The notes under the pieces: generated by a model
Databases searched by the model: none
The model's input: only the letters and a program-made list of their open reading frames with translations
What the model was told of the DNA's origin: nothing
In this document: one piece after another, positions 3,391 to 38,634 of the stretch
How the letters are laid out: every line of letters starts with the position of its first letter
How positions within the stretch are numbered: the stretch's first letter is position 1
Translations under genes and position numbers: made by a program
Source of the DNA: a virus
Lineage: Duplodnaviria > Caudoviricetes
Direction: 5' to 3' (one strand)
IMG/VR virus record: IMGVR_UViG_3300032111_000006
Location: 1-38,726 of that record
Length of the DNA: 38,726 nucleotides

Positions 3391-3393
3391 CAA

Positions 3394-3548
3394 GGCTGGG
3401 GCGGCGTGGTGGGCACACGCTGATGATCACAAGGTGATACCAAGCCTGCCTAGCCCTCGCGAGGGTATCGGCAAACCGGTATCCTGGCGAGGGCGATGGA
3501 TGCAGGCGGTGAAAAGGCACCAAGCCGGTTCGAATCCGGCCCCCGACC
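3394..3548 (+). ncRNA. tRNA-like structured RNA with ~100-nt insertion in place of the anticodon arm
   Basis: Acceptor-like GGCTGGGG/CCCCGACC, D-arm GCGTG-GTGGGCA-CACGC, perfect T-arm GCCGG-TTCGAAT-CCGGC (3524-3540), nested hairpins between them. Confidence 0.6.
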
Positions 3549-3570
3549 TACCTCTAACGGAAGGGGGGAA

Positions 3571-5490
3571 GTGAAGATAAGCAGCGAGATTTGGCTGACG
3601 ACGGCTGAAGTAGCTGACGTACTTAAAATGTCGGCATTCTCAGTGCGGAAACAGATCGCAAGGGGTCTGTACGTTATCCGGGAAGAACCCGGTAACGGCG
3701 GGGCTTGCCGGAAGCGGTATCTAATCGCGCTATCTTCTCTCCCCCCTGACATTCAGAGGCAGTTCGCTCAAGACCAAGCCGAGCAGGAAGCCGACCCTCT
3801 CCCCGCCCAGGCGGACGATTCCAGCTCGGCGGCGCAAAGGACAACGTGCACCTTGGCCGAGCTGGAGAGCCGTCTCTCTGACGAGGAGTACCGGCGCGTG
3901 ATGGACGAGGCCTGGCAGAAGGTAGCCATCTGCGAGGAGGTGATTGCTCTACGCGACGACCCAGACCGGGCGGCGAAGCTCGCCACTCTGATGAGCAAAC
4001 ACCATGTCAGCGACCGCACCCTGCGCCGCTGGGTCGCAGCCTACGAACGGGAGGGGATCGATGGGTTGATCCACCAGAAGTACCGCCAAGCGGTCGCCCA
4101 GCGCCGGGTCCATCCGGAGCTTATCCGGTTCATCAAGCGCGAATACCTACAGCCGCACAAACCTACGAAGCAACACGTCTACGAGCGGGCGTGCCGTTAC
4201 GCCGAGGAATTGGGTGTCCCGGCGCCGTCGCGGGCTACGGTGTACCGCATCATCGACGAGGACATCCTCCCGGGCGAGCGAGTGATGGGCCGGGAGGGCA
4301 TAGAGGCTTTCCGGAAGACGATCGAGCCCAAGTGCCGACGCGACCTGAGCGACCTGCAAAAGAACGAGATCTGGACGGGGGACGGCCACACAATTCCAGT
4401 GTTCCTGAACTTTGGCGGTCGTCCCTTAAAAGCCGTGGTCTCGGTTTGGATGGACATGCGCACCGAGGTTGTAACCGGCTTCTGCGTCAGCCAATACGAC
4501 AACAGCCAGAGCATCGCCCTGGCGCTCCGGCATGGCATACTGCCGAAACCCAACTCTCCAATTCAGGGCATCCCCGCCCAGGTCTACACCGATAACGGCA
4601 AGGACTACAGGAGCAAACACCTCGCCGCCGTCTATGCCAGCCTGCGGATCGACGAGCGGTTCTGCACCCCGCACAGTCCCTGGACAAAGCCCATCGAGCG
4701 ATTCTTCTCCACTATGCACTTGCGCTTTAGCAAGTACCTGCCCGGGTACTGTGGCAACAAACCGGAGGACAGGCCCGAAGGGTTCGACGAGAAAGCTCTT
4801 TGCAGGGCGGGCAAACTGCTCACGCCCGAAGAGTTTGCCTCGCGCCTGGCGGAGTGGATTGAGACCGACTACCATAAACGCCGGCATTCCGGGCTCGGCA
4901 TGTCACCGATGGAACTCTACGAGTCATTACCCGCTGCCCGGCCGGAGATGCCGGATGCCCGTGTCCTGGACCTTCTTTTAATGAAGCTCAACGAAGTCAA
5001 GATCTACCCGGACGGCATACGGCGTTTCGGACGGCTGTTCTGGGCCGAGGAGTTGGTGCCATTCATCGGGGATACGGTGACGGTTCGTTACGACCCGTCC
5101 AATGTCGGCGAACTGGTCGTCTTTCGCCGGGGCCGGTACCTGTGCGTGGCGAAGAACGCGGAACTGCTTTCAATGCGCGCCACCGAGGCGCAGGTCAAGG
5201 AGCATATCGCGCGCCAGCGGCGGGCGCGCAAGTTCTTCCGGCAGCGCCTGGCCGAACTAGATGCACCGCTCAGCGAGGTCCAGGATATACCCAAGGTCGT
5301 CGGTGCCAACGACGAGGGCGTCAGGCCGCAGGTGCAGATGCTCACCGGGCTGGAAGCCGCGGCCAGGGCGCGGGCCGCGGCACAGGACGATCTTCCCCCG
5401 CCGCCGGCCGTGGAAAAACGTGACCGCGTCAAGGATTTCCTGGTGGCCCGGGGCGACCGGGTCGCAAAGAGATTAGCCAAGGAGGGATGA
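3571..5490 (+). CDS. MuA-like DDE transposase
   Basis: N-terminal HTH, WTGDGH / YTDNGKDY / KPIERFF DDE triad, Mu-transposase C-terminal VRYDP region. GTG start at 3571 after GGAAGGGGGG. Confidence 0.95.
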   Translation: MKISSEIWLTTAEVADVLKMSAFSVRKQIARGLYVIREEPGNGGACRKRYLIALSSLPPDIQRQFAQDQAEQEADPLPAQADDSSSAAQRTTCTLAELESRLSDEEYRRVMDEAWQKVAICEEVIALRDDPDRAAKLATLMSKHHVSDRTLRRWVAAYEREGIDGLIHQKYRQAVAQRRVHPELIRFIKREYLQPHKPTKQHVYERACRYAEELGVPAPSRATVYRIIDEDILPGERVMGREGIEAFRKTIEPKCRRDLSDLQKNEIWTGDGHTIPVFLNFGGRPLKAVVSVWMDMRTEVVTGFCVSQYDNSQSIALALRHGILPKPNSPIQGIPAQVYTDNGKDYRSKHLAAVYASLRIDERFCTPHSPWTKPIERFFSTMHLRFSKYLPGYCGNKPEDRPEGFDEKALCRAGKLLTPEEFASRLAEWIETDYHKRRHSGLGMSPMELYESLPAARPEMPDARVLDLLLMKLNEVKIYPDGIRRFGRLFWAEELVPFIGDTVTVRYDPSNVGELVVFRRGRYLCVAKNAELLSMRATEAQVKEHIARQRRARKFFRQRLAELDAPLSEVQDIPKVVGANDEGVRPQVQMLTGLEAAARARAAAQDDLPPPPAVEKRDRVKDFLVARGDRVAKRLAKEG

Positions 5491-6470
5491 CAGTGGGACA
5501 GGTTGTGAGGATGGACGAGGCTGACCGCAGGGCGGTCGACGACCTGCGGCTGTATTTCAAGATGATGGTCGAGGACCGGGGGGCCACGGTCAGCGGCATC
5601 GCCCGGGAAATCGGCGTGAGCCACACGTATGTCAGCCGGTTCCTCGCCGGCGAGGACGGGAGCGCCAACCTGCGCGAAAAGCTGACGGAGCTAAAAGCCC
5701 GGTGGGAAGCGGCCACAGCCGAGGACCAGGCCGAGAAGCGCGAGTACCGGCGGGAGATTGACTTTTTCCTGACGAGTGACGCGAAGCAGGTCCTGGCAGT
5801 TTGCGATCTCTGCCAGTCGGAGCGCGAGATCGGCGTCATCGTGGGGCCGGCCGGCACCGGCAAAACGACGGCTCTCCTGAAGTTCTGCGAGAGCAACCCC
5901 GACGCGGTGTATGTGCGCGGTGACGTATCGATGACCGCCAAGGAGCTGCTGATCGAAATTGCCGACCGGCTGGGCATCGATGCCGGGTACGGGTCCCTGC
6001 GGTCGGTGATGAGACGAATTGTTACCCGGTTGAAGGAGCGGCCCGCGCTGATCATCATCGACGAAGCGGATCTCCTTGTGAGCTTCACAGTGCGGAAGCT
6101 CGAACTGCTGCGGACGATCTTCGATGAGTCCAGGTGCGGCCTGGTCCTCTGTGGCATGCCTCGTTTGGCGGGCTATCTGTTGCGTGGCCCGTCGATGAAG
6201 GAGAACCTGGCGCAGATCTACTCCCGGGTGGCGTACACCGCAAAGCTCGGCGGCCTGGCCCGCGCGGAAGCGGAGCAGATCCTCAGCGAGTATGAGCTGA
6301 CCGAGGCCGCGCGGAAGCTGCTGGTAGAGCGGGCGCTCGACTCAAAGCGAGGCGGCTTGCGGCGCTTTACGAAGCTGCTGGGCCGGGCGCTGGATCTGGC
6401 CGGCGAGCAGAAGATCACCCGGGAGATCGTTGAAGACGCCGGCCGGCTCATCCTCTCGTTAGAAGACTAG
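5487..6470 (+). CDS. MuB-like AAA+ transposition ATPase
   Basis: N-terminal HTH, Walker A GPAGTGKT, Walker B IIIDEAD; ATGA overlap with the transposase. Confidence 0.93.
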   Translation: MTVGQVVRMDEADRRAVDDLRLYFKMMVEDRGATVSGIAREIGVSHTYVSRFLAGEDGSANLREKLTELKARWEAATAEDQAEKREYRREIDFFLTSDAKQVLAVCDLCQSEREIGVIVGPAGTGKTTALLKFCESNPDAVYVRGDVSMTAKELLIEIADRLGIDAGYGSLRSVMRRIVTRLKERPALIIIDEADLLVSFTVRKLELLRTIFDESRCGLVLCGMPRLAGYLLRGPSMKENLAQIYSRVAYTAKLGGLARAEAEQILSEYELTEAARKLLVERALDSKRGGLRRFTKLLGRALDLAGEQKITREIVEDAGRLILSLED

Positions 6471-6471
6471 A

Positions 6472-6571
6472 TGCCGAAACCCTCGGCCTGGCCGGCCGGG
6501 GGTCGTGGAAGGGGTGGCGCCCCTTCTACCTGACGACCGCGGAAGCGGGCCGGGCAACCGGCGGCAAGCCA
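6472..6571 (+). ncRNA. Type II hammerhead ribozyme (variant with core insertion)
   Basis: TGCC-GAAA-stem III (10 bp)-GTC (cut after 6504)-stem I (10 bp, loop TGGCG)-CTGACGA-[26-nt insert]-GGCA, then GCCA able to pair with the stem I loop as a pseudoknot. Confidence 0.8.
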
Positions 6572-6601
6572 ATAGCCAATCCACAAGGGGGATGAAAAAC
6601 C

Positions 6602-6916
6602 ATGCGTTGGGGTGACACCGGGCCCCGCTATATTAACCACACGATCTGCCCCGTACCGCTCAAAGACCCAGACCCCACCAACTGCAGTTGTTGGGGCTGT
6701 CGGCACGACTTAGGCACGCGGTGCGGGGCAGGACATCCTTACCCGCACCACTACACCAGCGGCGAGATGTTCTGCTGGGATTTCGAGGATACCCTCATCG
6801 AAGCGCTTATCCAAGACCGGGGCAAGTGGATTGGTTGGGCTATCCTGGCGGTCGCCGGGCTGACCATTACAGCCTACGTTGTGGTGGCGGCCGTACGCTG
6901 GGGGTGGCCGGCGTGA
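6602..6916 (+). CDS. Hypothetical Cys/His-rich protein with C-terminal TM helix
   Basis: 104-aa ORF, AAGGGGG SD, hydrophobic C-terminus. Confidence 0.65.
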   Translation: MRWGDTGPRYINHTICPVPLKDPDPTNCSCWGCRHDLGTRCGAGHPYPHHYTSGEMFCWDFEDTLIEALIQDRGKWIGWAILAVAGLTITAYVVVAAVRWGWPA

Positions 6917-8740: not shown

Positions 8741-9727
8741 GTGATCAATACGGAACGTTTGGTGAATGAACTGGTGGCAGCAGTGAAGTCACACTCTTCC
8801 GATGCTGACGAGCCGGCCATCATCAGAGCTATTCAAGGGATACTGGTGCGCTATGAGATAAGGCCGGTGGACGTGGACGTTAACCACCAGATTGCCGAGA
8901 AGGTCAGGCTTTTCCTGGCGGCCAAGAAGCTTGAAGGCGCCAGTATTTACACGCTGAAAGGCTATGGCCTTGAGCTTAAGATCTTCGGCCAGTATTTCAC
9001 CAAGGACGTCGATCAAATTTCGACCAGCGACATCCGGTGGTACTTAAGCCAGTTCCCGAACCATAAGGCCTCGACGATCGGCCGGAAGCTCGCGGTCCTG
9101 AAGTCGTTCTTTGCCTGGTTAACGGACGAGGAGATCGTCCCGCGGGACCCCGCCCGGAAGATCAAATACCCGAAGGGATCAAAGCGGCTTCCCAAAGCCC
9201 TCACCATCGAAGAGTTGGAGCTGTTGCGCGAAGGCTGCCAGACACTGCGGGACCGGGCGCTTGTCGAGTTCTTGTATCACACCGGTTGCCGCCTGTCGGA
9301 AGTCTACGGTTTGAACCGCTCGGACATCAACTGGCAGGAGCAGTCGGCCAGGGTGGTTGGCAAGGGAAACAAGGAGAGGGTGGTGTTCTTCGGCGCCAAG
9401 GCCGCGATTCACCTACGGCGGTATCTGGATTTGCGTAAAGATGCACACCCGGCGGTGTTTGTGACGGACGTCGGCCTTGTCCGTCGGCTGTCACGGCGGG
9501 CCATCCAGTACGCGGTGCAAAAGATCGCGGACAGGGCTCCGATAGATAAAGGCGTGCACCCGCACATTCTTCGGCACACACTCGCCACCCTGCTCCTGAA
9601 CTCGGGCGCGGATCTGGCGGCGGTACAGGATCAACTGGGGCATGCCAATCCGGCGACGACGCAGATCTACGCCGCTTTGACTCCGGAACGCCGACGGGAA
9701 CAGTATCGCAGGCATTTGGTGCAGTAA
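8741..9727 (+). CDS. XerC/D-like tyrosine recombinase
   Basis: SAM-like N-domain, TGCRLSE (R), GKGNKER (K), HPHILRH (HxxR), LGHANPATTQIY (H, Y). Confidence 0.92.
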   Translation: MINTERLVNELVAAVKSHSSDADEPAIIRAIQGILVRYEIRPVDVDVNHQIAEKVRLFLAAKKLEGASIYTLKGYGLELKIFGQYFTKDVDQISTSDIRWYLSQFPNHKASTIGRKLAVLKSFFAWLTDEEIVPRDPARKIKYPKGSKRLPKALTIEELELLREGCQTLRDRALVEFLYHTGCRLSEVYGLNRSDINWQEQSARVVGKGNKERVVFFGAKAAIHLRRYLDLRKDAHPAVFVTDVGLVRRLSRRAIQYAVQKIADRAPIDKGVHPHILRHTLATLLLNSGADLAAVQDQLGHANPATTQIYAALTPERRREQYRRHLVQ

Positions 9728-33737: not shown

Positions 33738-33946
33738 CATACGTTCTTACAGTGAATGGCGATGGCACTACGACCATCGAGATCAGTTTTATTGACGAGG
33801 GCGTCGACATCCAAGGGCGCACGAACGTCAAGGGTGGCGAGGCCGAGGCACTGAGTTATCTGCCAGTCTTTGAGGCGGACCTACGGCGCAATTACGCTGA
33901 TCTGTTTCCCCTGCCCCCGATGCCGGAAGGAGGTATGTTTGAGTGA
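33734..33946 (+). CDS. Hypothetical protein
   Basis: 70-aa ORF coupled to both neighbours. Confidence 0.6.
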   Translation: MTYVLTVNGDGTTTIEISFIDEGVDIQGRTNVKGGEAEALSYLPVFEADLRRNYADLFPLPPMPEGGMFE

Positions 33947-35172
33947 GGTATATTAGCGGCCCATATACGCAGGGGCAACTGCTGAAGGAAATCCACGAAA
34001 TCGAGATTGCGCTGGCCAACCGATTCTTGCGTAACGGTGTCATTACCGACGCTGCTGAGCAGCGTTCCTGGCGCGAGCGCGTTGAGGAGGCCAGCTTTGG
34101 TCGTAACACGGTGCTATACGACGACCAAGGCAACCCCTCGGTGATGGTGGCGGTGCCGCTTATGACTGAGGCCGATCTACTTACCGGCGGGCGGAATATG
34201 CCCCACCCGGCCTTTATCGTCAACGGCATTACAAAACCACTGATCTACGTCTCAAAGTACCAAAACATAACCACCGGCTCCGGGACGACATTACGAGCCC
34301 TGAGCCTCAAACATCAGGACCCGGCGAATTCTATAACCTTTGACAACGCCCTTTTGGCGTGCAAGCAAAAGGGCACCGGATGGCACCTTCTGACTAACGC
34401 CGAGTGGGCCGCCATTGCGCTTTGGTGCAAAAAACAGGGCTTCTGGCCGCGCGGCAACAATGGCTTCGGCAAAGATTATGCCGTCGCCAGTGAAGCCGGG
34501 GTCCCGAGTTATTATTACGATGACGCTGGCACTAAGCGAATTGGGCGAGTCTTAACTGGTTCCGGCCCGTTACCCTGGTCGCATGACGGAAGCCCGTTCG
34601 GTATCTTTGACCTGAACGGCAATGTCTGGGAGTGGGTCGGCGGGCTGCGGTTAAATGTAGGAGAAATCCAAGTGCTCGCCGACAATAACGCTGCCGACAA
34701 CACTAAAGACCAGAGCTCCGCAAGCGCGGAGTGGAAAGCAATTCTCCAGGATGGTAGTCTCGTTGCGCCGGGTACCGCCAATACGCTCAAGATTGATTCG
34801 CCAGTCGCTGGGGATGGCGTGGGTGCTAACGACCTGGGAGCGCCGTTCATCAACACAACTATTACCAACAGCATGAACCCCGGCAATACCGCTTCGAACG
34901 AATACCTGGATTACGGCAGTTGTCCACTTGAGACCTTGACAGCTGCTGGCGGAGTCACCGTTCCAAACATTCTCAAATTGCTCGGTGTTGCTCCTGTTGA
35001 CAGCAACCACGGCGGGGACCGCTTTTGGGCGCGCAATTACGGCGAGCGTCTCCCGCTCCGGGGTGGGTGCTGGCTCCGCGGCTCCGCTGCGGGCGTTTTC
35101 GCTCTGGACCTGATCGGCCCTCGTTCGTACGTGCTCAGCAACGTCGGCTTCCGCGCGGCTTTTATTCCGTAA
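33943..35172 (+). CDS. DGR target protein, C-type-lectin/FGE-fold (Mtd-like receptor-binding protein)
   Basis: WHLLTNAEWAAI, GIFDLNGNVWEW, C-terminal RGG.W...GVF...R...GFRAA encoded by the VR. Confidence 0.92.
   Translation: MRYISGPYTQGQLLKEIHEIEIALANRFLRNGVITDAAEQRSWRERVEEASFGRNTVLYDDQGNPSVMVAVPLMTEADLLTGGRNMPHPAFIVNGITKPLIYVSKYQNITTGSGTTLRALSLKHQDPANSITFDNALLACKQKGTGWHLLTNAEWAAIALWCKKQGFWPRGNNGFGKDYAVASEAGVPSYYYDDAGTKRIGRVLTGSGPLPWSHDGSPFGIFDLNGNVWEWVGGLRLNVGEIQVLADNNAADNTKDQSSASAEWKAILQDGSLVAPGTANTLKIDSPVAGDGVGANDLGAPFINTTITNSMNPGNTASNEYLDYGSCPLETLTAAGGVTVPNILKLLGVAPVDSNHGGDRFWARNYGERLPLRGGCWLRGSAAGVFALDLIGPRSYVLSNVGFRAAFIP
35044..35161 (+). repeat. DGR variable repeat (VR)
   Basis: 118-nt ungapped match to 35590-35707 with 12 mismatches. 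Confidence 0.95.
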
Positions 35173-35198
35173 TCTGGCACCTGTAGAACTGTAATCTG

Positions 35199-35224
35199 TT
35201 TTGGCGGGCGGTAGCCCGCCAAAA
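35199..35224 (+). promoter_or_regulatory. DGR target-recognition hairpin/cruciform
   Basis: TTTTGGCGGGC-GGTA-GCCCGCCAAAA: 11-bp stem with a GRNA-type loop just downstream of the VR/IMH. Confidence 0.85.
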
Positions 35225-35235
35225 GGAAGGCGTCG

Positions 35236-35571
35236 ATGGAAGAACTAAAAATACTGCAAAAGACCTATGACATGATGCAGTATGGCTACGTCTGCCTGCG
35301 CCAATTCCCAAAGTCTGAGAAGTTTGCTTTGGCGGGCGAGATAAAGTTGGCGATGGCCAGAATGTTGCGGCTGATCATTCAGGCCAATAAGCGGTACTTC
35401 AAAAAGAGCACGCTCCAGGACATCGATGTAGAGCTGGCAACGGTCAAGACTTATGTCCGATTGGCAAGGGATCTGGGCTTTCTGCCTTTTAACAAATACG
35501 AGCACTGGTCTAAGATGCTCGATGAAATCGGCAGGATGCTCGGAGGCTGGATAAAGAGCGTAAAGCAATGA
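35236..35571 (+). CDS. avd: DGR accessory variability determinant
   Basis: 111-aa four-helix-bundle pattern FPKSEKFALA...EIGRMLGGW between VR and TR. Confidence 0.92.
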   Translation: MEELKILQKTYDMMQYGYVCLRQFPKSEKFALAGEIKLAMARMLRLIIQANKRYFKKSTLQDIDVELATVKTYVRLARDLGFLPFNKYEHWSKMLDEIGRMLGGWIKSVKQ

Positions 35572-35589
35572 TTTACGGGGAGGAAGCCA

Positions 35590-35707
35590 GAGCGTCTCCC
35601 GCTCCGGGGTGGGGTCTGGAACAGCGGCTCCGCTGCGGGCGTTTTCGCTCTGAACCTGAACGGCCCTCGTTCGTACGTGCTCGGCGGCATCGGCGTCCGC
35701 GCGGCTT
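35590..35707 (+). repeat. DGR template repeat (TR)
   Basis: Copy of the VR between avd and RT; retains AAC codons at 3 positions. Confidence 0.93.
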
Positions 35708-35886
35708 CATCCTGCAGCCAGAAGTGGTTGGCTCACGGGCCAATCTCCAGCGCACAGGGATAAAGGGGCTTTCTTCCCTGCCGCGTTCCGCATTGGACCG
35801 GCAAAAAACTGAACTGCTGGGAAGGCAGTTAGTAGCCCGCAAGGGCGAAGGGTGCCACGCCCAGTCTAATTAAACGGAGGCAGCAC

Positions 35887-36966
35887 TTGAAGCGGCATAA
35901 GGGCTTATATCCAAAGATCTACGACTTCGAGAACCTATTCCTGGCCTATCTTGAGGCCAGGAAGTGCAAGCGTTACCGTTCTGAGGTTTTGAGCTTTACT
36001 GCTAATCTAGAAGAGAACCTGATCAACCTGCAAAATGAGCTGATTTGGCGCACATACCGGGTTGGGCGGTACCGGGAGTTTTTCGTGTACGAACCCAAAA
36101 AGCGGCTTATTATGGCCCTGCCGTTTCGGGACCGGGTGGTCCAGTGGGCCATTTATCGAGCGCTTAACCCGCTCCTTGACAGGCGCTATATCCAGGACTC
36201 CTACGCTTGCCGGGTAGGATACGGCACTCACCGGGCCGTGGACCGGCTGCAATATTGGCTCCGGGGTCTGGAGCGGAAGCATGCCAGGGTATACGTGCTG
36301 AAGCTCGACATATCCAAGTACTTCTACCGGGTGGATCATGATGTTCTGATGGCTATTCTGCGCCGGCTAATTGATGACCAGGATCTGCTGTGGCTCTTGG
36401 AGACTATTATCCGGTGCGAACATACCAAGTTCGGCTTGGCCCTGGGAGACCAGGGCTTCACCGGCGAGCGGGTGGACGGCGTGGGAATGCCCATCGGAAA
36501 CCTGACAAGCCAGATGTTTGCAAATTTGTACCTCAATGAACTGGACCAATTCGTAAAACACGAGCTGCGGGTCAGGCACTATATGCGGTATATGGATGAC
36601 GCCCTGGTGCTTCACTGGGAAAAACCCTACCTATGGTGGGTAAAGCAGGAAATCCAGCGGTTCCTCGACGAGCACCTGCGCTTAGTCCTGAATAGCAAAA
36701 CCACTATCAGGACCGTAGACCAGGGCATTGAGTGGGTTGGTTACTGGGTCTGGAGCACCCACAGGAAGTTACGAAAGTCCACGGTCAAGAAAATGAAGCG
36801 GCGCCTGAAATACCTCCAGAGGGCCTATGCCCGAGGCGAGGTTGATTGGGAGGAGGTAAACGCCAGCGTACAGAGTTACCTTGGCCTGTTGAAGCACTGC
36901 AACAGCTTTTGTTTGAGGGAAAAGTTCTTCGGTGATCTGGTGTTTTGCCGAAGGGTTACACAGTAG
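35887..36966 (+). CDS. DGR reverse transcriptase
   Basis: FRDRVVQ, LKLDISKYF, GMPIGNLTSQMFAN (DGR-type SQ), YMRYMDD; GGAGG SD with TTG start. Confidence 0.96.
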   Translation: MKRHKGLYPKIYDFENLFLAYLEARKCKRYRSEVLSFTANLEENLINLQNELIWRTYRVGRYREFFVYEPKKRLIMALPFRDRVVQWAIYRALNPLLDRRYIQDSYACRVGYGTHRAVDRLQYWLRGLERKHARVYVLKLDISKYFYRVDHDVLMAILRRLIDDQDLLWLLETIIRCEHTKFGLALGDQGFTGERVDGVGMPIGNLTSQMFANLYLNELDQFVKHELRVRHYMRYMDDALVLHWEKPYLWWVKQEIQRFLDEHLRLVLNSKTTIRTVDQGIEWVGYWVWSTHRKLRKSTVKKMKRRLKYLQRAYARGEVDWEEVNASVQSYLGLLKHCNSFCLREKFFGDLVFCRRVTQ

Positions 36967-37118: not shown

Positions 37119-37123
37119 CCTAT
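37119..37123 (+). repeat. Right copy of target-site duplication CCTAT
   Basis: Matches 397-401. Confidence 0.85.
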
Positions 37124-38634
37124 CTAACAGACGAAATGAGGATGTGTGTTTTCAGCCTACCTACGAGGAATTGAAACACCGTTTTTGGCAGTGCATTCTA
37201 AAATGGAGGTGAAGGTTTTCAGCCTACCTACGAGGAATTGAAACTCTGCAACGGGATGCCAACCCTCATGATTGAGCTTCAACGTTTTCAGCCTACCTAC
37301 GAGGAATTGAAACGCGGGCAGCTGGCTGGCGTAGAACCGATGGTTCTTGGTTTTCAGCCTACCTACGAGGAATTGAAACCCGTCTGACCGTAGGGGTTGT
37401 CGCCGCTGTCGAGTTTTCAGCCTACGAGCCGTCGGGGTTTTTCTTCATCGGGCGGTCCACGTTGTCGCCGCTGTCGAGTTTTCAGCCTACCTACGAGGAA
37501 TTGAAACTTTTCTCAATGTCTTCTTTGGTTAGGCGGCCTTTTTGTTTTCAGCCTACCTACGAGGAATTGAAACCGCGGAAGCGGTAAAAATGTAATAAGT
37601 GGGGGGAAGTTTTCAGCCTACCTACGAGGAATTGAAACCCTTTGACGCCGACGCCTGCACGAACCCCAATGTCGGTTTTCAGCCTACCTACGAGGAATTG
37701 AAACGCTTCTTCCTCGACGACCTCGAAGGCCGGGTTCCTGTTTTCAGCCTACCTACGAGGAATTGAAACGCGGGCAGCTGGCTGGCGTAGAACCGATGGT
37801 TCTTGGTTTTCAGCCTACCTACGAGGAATTGAAACTGGGCTTGCGGAGTCGACCACATCCGCAAGACCCGGGTTTTCAGCCTACCTACGAGGAATTGAAA
37901 CGCAAACGCGAATTTTACAAGCTTGCCGATTTCATCAGGTTTTCAGCCTACCTACGAGGAATTGAAACAAATGTTGAAAGCCTGCAACATTAAAACCAGA
38001 ACCGGGTTTTCAGCCTACCTACGAGGAATTGAAACACCAAAGAAGAGATCGAACAAGTTCTGACCAACTTGTGTTTTCAGCCTACCTACGAGGAATTGAA
38101 ACGGGTCTGGCGGTATCCAACCCCAACCGTTCCACGCAAGTTTTCAGCCTACCTACGAGGAATTGAAACCCTTTCTGCCTGGCCTGCGGCACAACCCGAA
38201 CCTGGTTTTCAGCCTACCTACGAGGAATTGAAACTGCAGCCAACGATAAGGCCAAGCAGGAATACCACCATGTTTTCAGCCTACCTACGAGGAATTGAAA
38301 CCGGTGCAGGTTCGGGTTGTGCCGCAGGCCCGGAAGAAGTTTTCAGCCTACCTACGAGGAATTGAAACAAGGTTAGCATTGTTACCCTCTCCTTTGTATT
38401 CGGGTTTTCAGCCTACCTACGAGGAATTGAAACGTGATCGGATTGATAACGTGCGTCATACCTCGTCACAGTTTTCAGCCTACCTACGAGGAATTGAAAC
38501 AACCGAGGCATCCAGGCTACCCGAATGCCGTTCACCGGTTTTCAGCCTACCTACGAGGAATTGAAACCAGCCAAGCGTTCGCCAGCTAGCCAATATGCCG
38601 TCGGGTTTTCAGCCTACCTACGAGGAATTGAAAC
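37119..38634 (+). CRISPR. CRISPR array, right part (22 full repeats plus one irregular unit)
   Basis: Same 30-bp repeat from 37148 to 38634, spacers 33-39 nt, irregular unit at 37396-37490. Confidence 0.98.

Follow-up and report, generated by a model that had tools for sequence, protein, structure and literature searches.

Can a hammerhead ribozyme still work when two additional hairpins lie inside its catalytic core? The question is raised by an element located just downstream of the MuB gene in IMG/VR virus record IMGVR_UViG_3300032111_000006, a stretch of 38,726 nucleotides that was analysed as a whole and is called here the window. The element (positions 6472–6571, plus strand, as are all the features described below for this locus) is a type II hammerhead with the full core, stems I to III and also the loop I pseudoknot, and 26 nt are placed between A9 and G10.1. 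As judged by comparison with its natural relatives, it is real, conserved and probably active. We give a probability of about 0.6 to the reading that this conserved two-hairpin hammerhead cleaves itself after C6504, its hairpins being stacked in a perfect four-way junction that does not displace the catalytic core.

The window corresponds to a complete-looking Mu-like prophage, with a repressor, MuA, MuB, Gam, head and contractile tail genes, and a diversity-generating retroelement. The start of MuA is probably near 3571 and not at 3496 (its relatives align from about residue 23–40). A tyrosine recombinase gene (8741–9727), with a homologue in L329, is found within the early region of this transposable phage. 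The retroelement (33943–36966) shows the order target gene, avd, template repeat and reverse transcriptase (RT); the variable repeat is near 35047–35170, in the target gene, the template repeat is near 35591–35705, and a match to the Rfam RT-14 RNA (35705–35864, 65.8 bits) covers the stretch between the template repeat and the RT. The prophage is situated within a CRISPR array. The repeats of this array are at 26–386 and 37148–38634, the whole prophage lies inside one spacer with a 5-bp duplication on both sides (397–401 and 37119–37123), and the two spacer halves rejoin to give 39 nt. The phage ends are apparently an inverted TAT, as against the TG...CA ends of Mu. A literature search on Mu-like prophages in CRISPR arrays gave no usable source.

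The gene for the MuB-like transposition ATPase (5487–6470; phrog_296, E 2e-63; Pfam AAA_22) ends with a stop codon at 6468–6470. One base separates it from the ribozyme, in agreement with the first-pass annotation, in which the element was said to start 2 nt after this stop. The 5′ strand of stem II (6472–6475, C11.1 being 6475) is followed by the core bases G12, A13, A14 and A15.1 (GAAA, 6476–6479) and by the stem III hairpin (6479–6503), whose 10 bp are formed by 6479–6488 and 6494–6503, with the A15.1–U16.1 pair at the base, according to the fold and its pairing probabilities. The GUC triplet occupies 6502–6504 and the cut predicted from the hammerhead consensus falls between 6504 and 6505. 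Stem I is another folded hairpin of 10 bp (6505–6529; strands 6505–6514 and 6520–6529), and its loop (6515–6519) carries the 5′ strand of the pseudoknot (6515–6518). Core positions C3–A9 (CUGACGA) are at 6530–6536. Hairpin A (4 bp, 6537–6548) begins directly 3′ of A9, and hairpin B (5 bp, 6549–6562) abuts both hairpin A and G10.1 (6563) without any linker, both being placed by fold and covariation. The 3′ strand of stem II (6563–6566) and the 3′ strand of the pseudoknot (6568–6571) complete the element; the latter, recognized by sequence comparison, forms 4 bp with loop I in the window and 5 in most relatives. All the core elements listed in the first-pass annotation were thus recovered in the same order and place, together with its 26-nt insert of two hairpins between CUGACGA and stem II, a point that is occupied in 16 copies. 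A Shine-Dalgarno-like sequence (6585–6591) is located 13 nt after the ribozyme and belongs to an ORF of 104 amino acids (6602–6916) that would head the 3′ cleavage product. This ORF had no match in PHROG or Pfam, and a weak relative of it lies 3′ of the ribozyme in L398 and L758 (tblastn E about 1e-5).

The five-helix fold is both the minimum free energy structure and the centroid of 6465–6580 (−63.1 kcal/mol, z −3.4). None of 200 shuffles was as stable, and the junction base pairs have probabilities of 0.80–1.00. In 400 dinucleotide shuffles of the window, searched on both strands, a match to the full descriptor (the core, all three stems and the two hairpins without linker) appeared in a single shuffle, and the core with stems I and III alone was matched in 11. 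A chance origin is settled against, because 15 further distinct natural copies exist.

Some other readings of the locus were considered and set aside. Stem II at first seemed disfavoured when the flanks were included in the fold (P near 0; 0–4.3 kcal/mol), but the cost in the window, 3.2 kcal/mol, is within the range of 96 ordinary copies (median 3.8, folding without the pseudoknot), and this argument was dropped. The insert was not retained as a terminator, as it has no U-run and a terminator scan found none, nor as a GNRA receptor partner, since its loop sequences are not conserved. The last MuB codons (6456–6462) provide a 7-nt complement to the core CUGACGA, which could sequester the core when MuB is untranslated; as a conserved attenuator this was also discarded, the complement being present in 1 of 16 copies.

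The family is composed of 16 distinct copies in 15 records, nearly all of them 3′ of MuB in Mu-like prophages. A type II core scan that was blind to what follows CUGAnGA, applied to 7 of the 64 IMG/VR parts, yielded 129 loci, and one of them (L168) contains the same two-hairpin insert 3′ of a MuB that is 76% identical to that of the window. Further copies were obtained by pattern scans, by a MuB-profile scan and by a covariance model, which recovered L328, L312 and L370. Several of these copies were found by patterns containing insert letters. Four were found without insert sequence (L168/L387 by the core scan; L081/L478, L392a and L397 through MuB), and compensatory pairs are present in two of the four. 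A MuB homologue is located upstream in 14 of the 15 copies tested, the relatives being 31–76% identical to the MuB of the window. The L465 copy is near a contig start, with gam downstream. The L328 copy lies close to the end of its contig and has downstream of it a terminase small subunit that belongs to the same family as that of the window.

The distribution of the family was explored with several searches. Single-protein MuB scans returned relatives of at most 43% identity, and 1 of 160 loci had a family copy (L081). This locus provides the only named host, Pelotomaculum propionicicum, with two copies; its strain MGP has L484, a copy whose core is intact. The model matched in 6 of 151 genomes from the class of this bacterium. 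Among 301 genomes sampled from another class there were 18 pattern matches, none of them hammerhead-like when the matched text was read. In a scan of 3 of 64 metagenome parts none of 120 loci had a family copy by descriptor, and L547, a weak core-only parse, was dropped. BLAST of 6400–6700 against 50,697 GenBank phage records gave no match.

Ordinary type II hammerheads are also present in this phage clade, three in L393 and one in L397, the latter phage possessing one ordinary and one inserted hammerhead. In L398, L399 and L758 the MuB stop is immediately followed by a truncated ribozyme, a 5′ half that matches the first 17 nt of the window copy exactly, and then by another ORF; these truncated halves suggest that cassettes of ribozyme, ribosome-binding site and ORF are shuffled by recombination. 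On a 112-kb contig (L175–L180), at least 10 ordinary type II hammerheads are arranged in tandem over about 10 kb, each before a small gene.

In all 16 copies the insert, of 26–32 nt, forms two hairpins with no unpaired base before, between or after them. Covariation was evaluated in an alignment of 15 distinct rows (A4), whose counts lean towards the model and whose members are related (58–98% identical): every one of the 4 pairs of hairpin A shows two-sided change and 98% of its cells are paired, and for hairpin B the figures are 3 of 6 pairs and 94%. None of the 500 shuffles and none of the slid controls reached the score of the structure of this alignment, and RNAalifold recovers both inserted hairpins unaided. 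Three sequences (L397, L756 and L400) account for the compensatory changes in hairpin A, as single events. What this covariation demonstrates is a requirement for pairing in the insert, not a usefulness of the insert. The first-pass annotation had foreseen, as the adverse outcome, an unconserved insert in a dead ribozyme; what is found is an insert conserved with covariation. Its description of the insert as two GNRA hairpins holds for the window, where both loops are GNRA, but not as a feature of the family: this occurs in both loops of only 1 of the 16 copies, in loop A of 4 and in loop B of 5, and the loops vary between 3 and 8 nt. The first base of hairpin A is C in 15 of 16 copies, and the junction pair of hairpin B is GC in 8, AU in 5 and GU in 3.

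The remaining parts of the element behave as follows. Stem III shows two-sided change at 5 of 8 modelled pairs and stem I also covaries. The inner three pairs of stem II are invariant (15/15) and the outer pair is kept in 9/15, hence this stem has no covariation signal of its own. The outer pair of the pseudoknot is UA in 6 and CG in 6 of 16 copies and the other pairs are near-invariant; L756 has 4 pairs and L465 one broken pair. The core is intact in 13 of 16 copies (GAAA in 15, C3–A9 in 14), and the other three retain the insert together with a core substitution, A15.1 to C in L478 and A9 to G in the near-identical L398 and L758. Mean column conservation is 0.98 for the core bases, as against 0.71–0.82 for stems I and III, and the junction-proximal pairs of the insert reach 0.86–0.90. 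Within the core, variation affects position 7, the free one (U, C or A), and the triplet is GUC, UUC, GUU or AUU, all of them allowed NUH forms. The stem I hairpin has 21–26 nt (median 24), the median of ordinary type II copies being 23. This unchanged length, together with a 3-bp stem II like that of ordinary copies, indicates that the pseudoknot register has not been shifted to accommodate the insert.

How might the core accommodate two hairpins at this point? In a perfect four-way RNA junction the helices stack coaxially two by two, whereas perfect three-way junctions do not stack in this way until a few bases are bulged. In the portion available of the report on a pseudoknotted hammerhead crystal (PMC11300833), A9 and G12 are joined in a sheared pair beside G10.1–C11.1, following an abrupt bend from G8 to A9. 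If A9–G12 is counted as a helix end, what looked like a five-way junction can be read as an ordinary core with a four-way junction grafted at A9/G10.1: A9–G12, hairpin A, hairpin B and stem II would be four helices meeting without linkers. Linker bases are absent in 16/16 copies, and one arm would be a non-canonical pair taken from the structure in PMC11300833 and not from this RNA. In the conformer proposed, hairpin A would stack on hairpin B and A9–G12 on stem II, so that the active site and the pseudoknot register would be kept, which agrees with the unchanged lengths of stems I and II.

A cut at 6504/6505 would split the early transcript of the phage. Of the two products, the upstream one, with the MuA–MuB part, would terminate with the stem III hairpin and a cyclic phosphate. 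The downstream one would begin with a 5′-OH held by pairing in stem I, after which come the two hairpins and the ribosome-binding site. The genes on either side would thereby get separate, protected ends, expected to resist exonucleases. As for the insert itself, its main effect would be on folding, on the rate or on how stable the downstream RNA is, with no partner reading its loops, because these are free to vary. A Shine-Dalgarno-like site is present 2–16 nt after the pseudoknot in all 15 copies tested (generous pattern), and likewise in ordinary phage copies. Because of this shared position, the role is probably, by analogy, the same as that suggested for the hammerheads of prophages generally: according to the accessible text of Perreault et al. 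(2011, PMC3088659), that of phage type II hammerheads would be the cutting of long phage transcripts.

A different role for the insert would be regulation: the four-way junction could flip between active and inactive stacking, or bind a metal or a protein of the phage or of the host, so that cutting would be switched in the prophage cycle. This idea, which we consider unlikely although it is the strongest of the alternatives, finds some encouragement in the junction-proximal pairs of the insert, more conserved than stems I and III, in the maintenance of the insert across phages whose MuB proteins have diverged to the extent described above, though one base would do, and in the coexistence of an ordinary and an inserted copy in L397. 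Regulated cleavage has also been suggested for some phage hammerheads, in the part available of PMC3088659. However, the loops of the insert vary freely in length and sequence, and no unpaired bases are conserved that a ligand could recognize; the higher conservation of the stems may reflect descent only, and the neighbouring genes are not constant.

Could the hairpins instead have disabled catalysis, the element being kept as a structured leader, either an RNA stabiliser or a recombination repeat lying between gene cassettes, in which the core survives by descent? The three copies with core substitutions and an intact insert would fit such a fate, the truncated 5′ halves at the MuB stop show that these repeats do recombine, and published alignments, as far as PMC10085705 could be consulted, contain no insert longer than 2 nt here. 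Against it, the unpaired core bases are the most conserved of the element and only position 7 varies, the triplet is restricted to allowed NUH forms, the pseudoknot covaries, and two other phage groups carry hairpins at A9/G10.1 with intact cores. Loss of activity is rated slightly below regulation, and self-cleavage remains the preferred reading.

The first-pass annotation had proposed that RNA processing signals bracket the A–B cassette and release it as a separate mRNA, the ribozyme being paired with a tRNA-like element before MuA. That element (3393–3550) adopts a large tRNA-like cloverleaf fold (z −5.4) that has an enlarged middle as well as D-like and T-like arms, and the geometry of the window fits the proposal. 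In addition, the L400 copy also adjoins MuB, three loci keep the 5′ half there, and a type I hammerhead is found just before MuA in L397. The family as a whole does not follow this arrangement. Of 14 copies with MuB on the contig, only those of the window and L400 lie within 2 nt of its stop, whereas the other 12 are 170–1516 nt downstream, one of them beyond gam, and the close MuB relatives L389 and L390 had no match to the family model within 3 kb. The tRNA-like element was not called by ARAGORN and its Rfam matches are all below the gathering threshold, a scan of 24 related loci revealed no T-arm motif like its own before MuA, and the 3′ end of an A–B mRNA requires no terminator or second ribozyme. 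A matched pair releasing the A–B mRNA is thus improbable, more so than the two preceding alternatives. Processing on both sides of A–B may occur in the window phage, but it is not what the family conserves; the constant context is a ribosome-binding site shortly downstream of the ribozyme. A shorter look-alike of the tRNA-like element is located just upstream of the ribozyme in L465.

The Rfam Hammerhead_II model matches 6472–6548 with 26.3 bits, below the gathering score of 37; the alignment stops inside the insert and cannot place it, and no hammerhead match was obtained in the loci of four relatives at E up to 1. That the core is uninterrupted, with stem II formed by the bases just after CUGACGA (a 2-nt insert, as Rfam aligns 6472–6548) and the downstream hairpins being separate, is very improbable, since those bases pair and covary inside hairpin A, and the 3′ strands of stem II and of the pseudoknot, which come after hairpin B, show the same invariance, or the same covariation with loop I, as their counterparts in ordinary type II copies.

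The preferred reading, an interrupted core that still cleaves, leads to the question of what other hammerheads tolerate at A9/G10.1. In 101 distinct type II hammerhead-like hits from the core scan of IMG/VR parts there is nothing between A9 and stem II in 33, one base in 63 and other arrangements in 5, of which L168 is one; the single base is U in 56 hits, G in 5, A in 1 and C in 1. The extra base of the CChMVd hammerhead is a known case, for which De la Pena and Flores are reportedly the authors cited, with a work of 2001. As described in the part available of PMC3705267, it is a natural extra A10 at A9/G10.1, where C or G were strongly harmful and only U helped, the rate rising 3–4-fold. The A9 phosphate and G10.1 form a metal site (PMC7151607, from the portion consulted). 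Both observations weigh against the preferred reading, since this point is sensitive to what occupies it and hairpin A opens with C in nearly all copies.

An insert-blind census was carried out with two scans of all IMG/VR in which only the flanks were fixed and 8–69 nt were left free after CUGAYGA. It gave 113 loci, of which a stem filter removed 86 as chance matches and one was a duplicate, leaving 26 distinct copies (4 ordinary and 22 with inserts). Seven of the inserts are two-hairpin forms without linker and 15 are single hairpins, all with 3–4 unpaired bases; among copies with the scanned flanks, the census of IMG/VR contained neither an unstructured insert nor a linker-free single hairpin. 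Thirteen of the single-hairpin copies (L826, L842, L843, L847, L853, L856, L858, L861, L862, L868, L875, L876 and L878) combine one long hairpin with 3 unpaired bases and are distributed on 9 contigs of phages of about 14 kb, the only one annotated being phi29-like. Their hairpin is AU-rich and 26–63 nt long, its base helix shows two-sided change at 2 of 4 pairs (12 aligned copies), and, where checked, a copy is located near each genome end, pointing inward. L783 and L787, in two other phages, present a 3-bp GNRA hairpin and 4 unpaired bases at the same point.

These forms suggest a linker rule, in which two hairpins need no linker and one hairpin needs 3–4 bases, with about three independent origins behind it. 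The rule would follow from the stacking of junctions: two hairpins can stack mutually, and a single one needs 3–4 bases to reach G10.1. A broader idea is that A9/G10.1 is a general expansion port of the hammerhead, onto which helical domains have been grafted at least three times, and that the Mu-like junction is a stacking switch gating cleavage of the early transcript, that is, a natural allosteric hammerhead. We regard this as a speculative proposal with a low probability, similar to that of the regulated ribozyme.

Among known systems, the closest relatives of the family are the type II (type-GSC) phage hammerheads of Rfam RF02276. As presented in the accessible parts of PMC3088659, both share the block order, the core, a short stem II and a pseudoknot between loop I and the 3′ tail, and RF02276 hammerheads are also located between prophage genes, just before the ribosome-binding site. 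The family differs in the 26–32 nt, folded as two hairpins, between A9 and G10.1 and in an Rfam score below threshold. The window element has the core of the hammerhead class (C3–A9, G12, A13 and A14, A15.1–U16.1, H17) and its stems I–III, and, as in RF02276, both stem I and stem III are closed, stem II is open and loop I pairs with the tail; it departs from RF02276 in having more than the 1–2 nt at most allowed between CUGAnGA and stem II, and in not reaching the gathering score of 37 bits. The core variants of Perreault et al. are substitutions and insertions of 1–2 nt (PMC3088659, as far as accessible). Known alignments have at most 1–2 nt at A9/G10.1, and the enumeration of possible forms by Eckert et al. 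(2023, PMC10085705, in the portion available) assumes that CUGAnGA runs straight into stem II.

The hammerheads with one base at A9/G10.1, such as CChMVd (+) with its A10 (PMC3705267, in part), have the same point occupied, and there the insertion is tolerated in a natural active ribozyme; it is one bulged base in CChMVd (+), as against two closed hairpins in the family. The type-SGC hammerheads of Eckert et al. (PMC10085705, same portion) are, like the family, a natural rewiring with a conserved core, but the block order of the window is G-S-C, and hence it does not belong to that permuted type. Hairpins at A9/G10.1 are nowhere described in the literature covered, including the accessible parts of PMC6155905 and PMC13725137, a scope that leaves aside subscription journals, bioRxiv supplements and Dataset S1 of Perreault et al.

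No small ribozyme has been studied better than the hammerhead, and the searches made for it take for granted that stem II comes directly after CUGAnGA. A covarying family with two extra helices, together with two other architectures, means that descriptors and Rfam models miss natural hammerheads and that more topologies are possible. If these RNAs cleave, they would provide a simple linker rule and a new position for grafting aptamers, one base from the active site. The nearest structural parallel is the natural form of the hairpin ribozyme, whose four-way (4H) junction joins four helices without linker, supports the fold through paired stacking and docks the two catalytic loops. The family would use the same kind of junction in a different way, since one of its arms would be the active-site A9–G12 pair itself, in a geometry that we infer.
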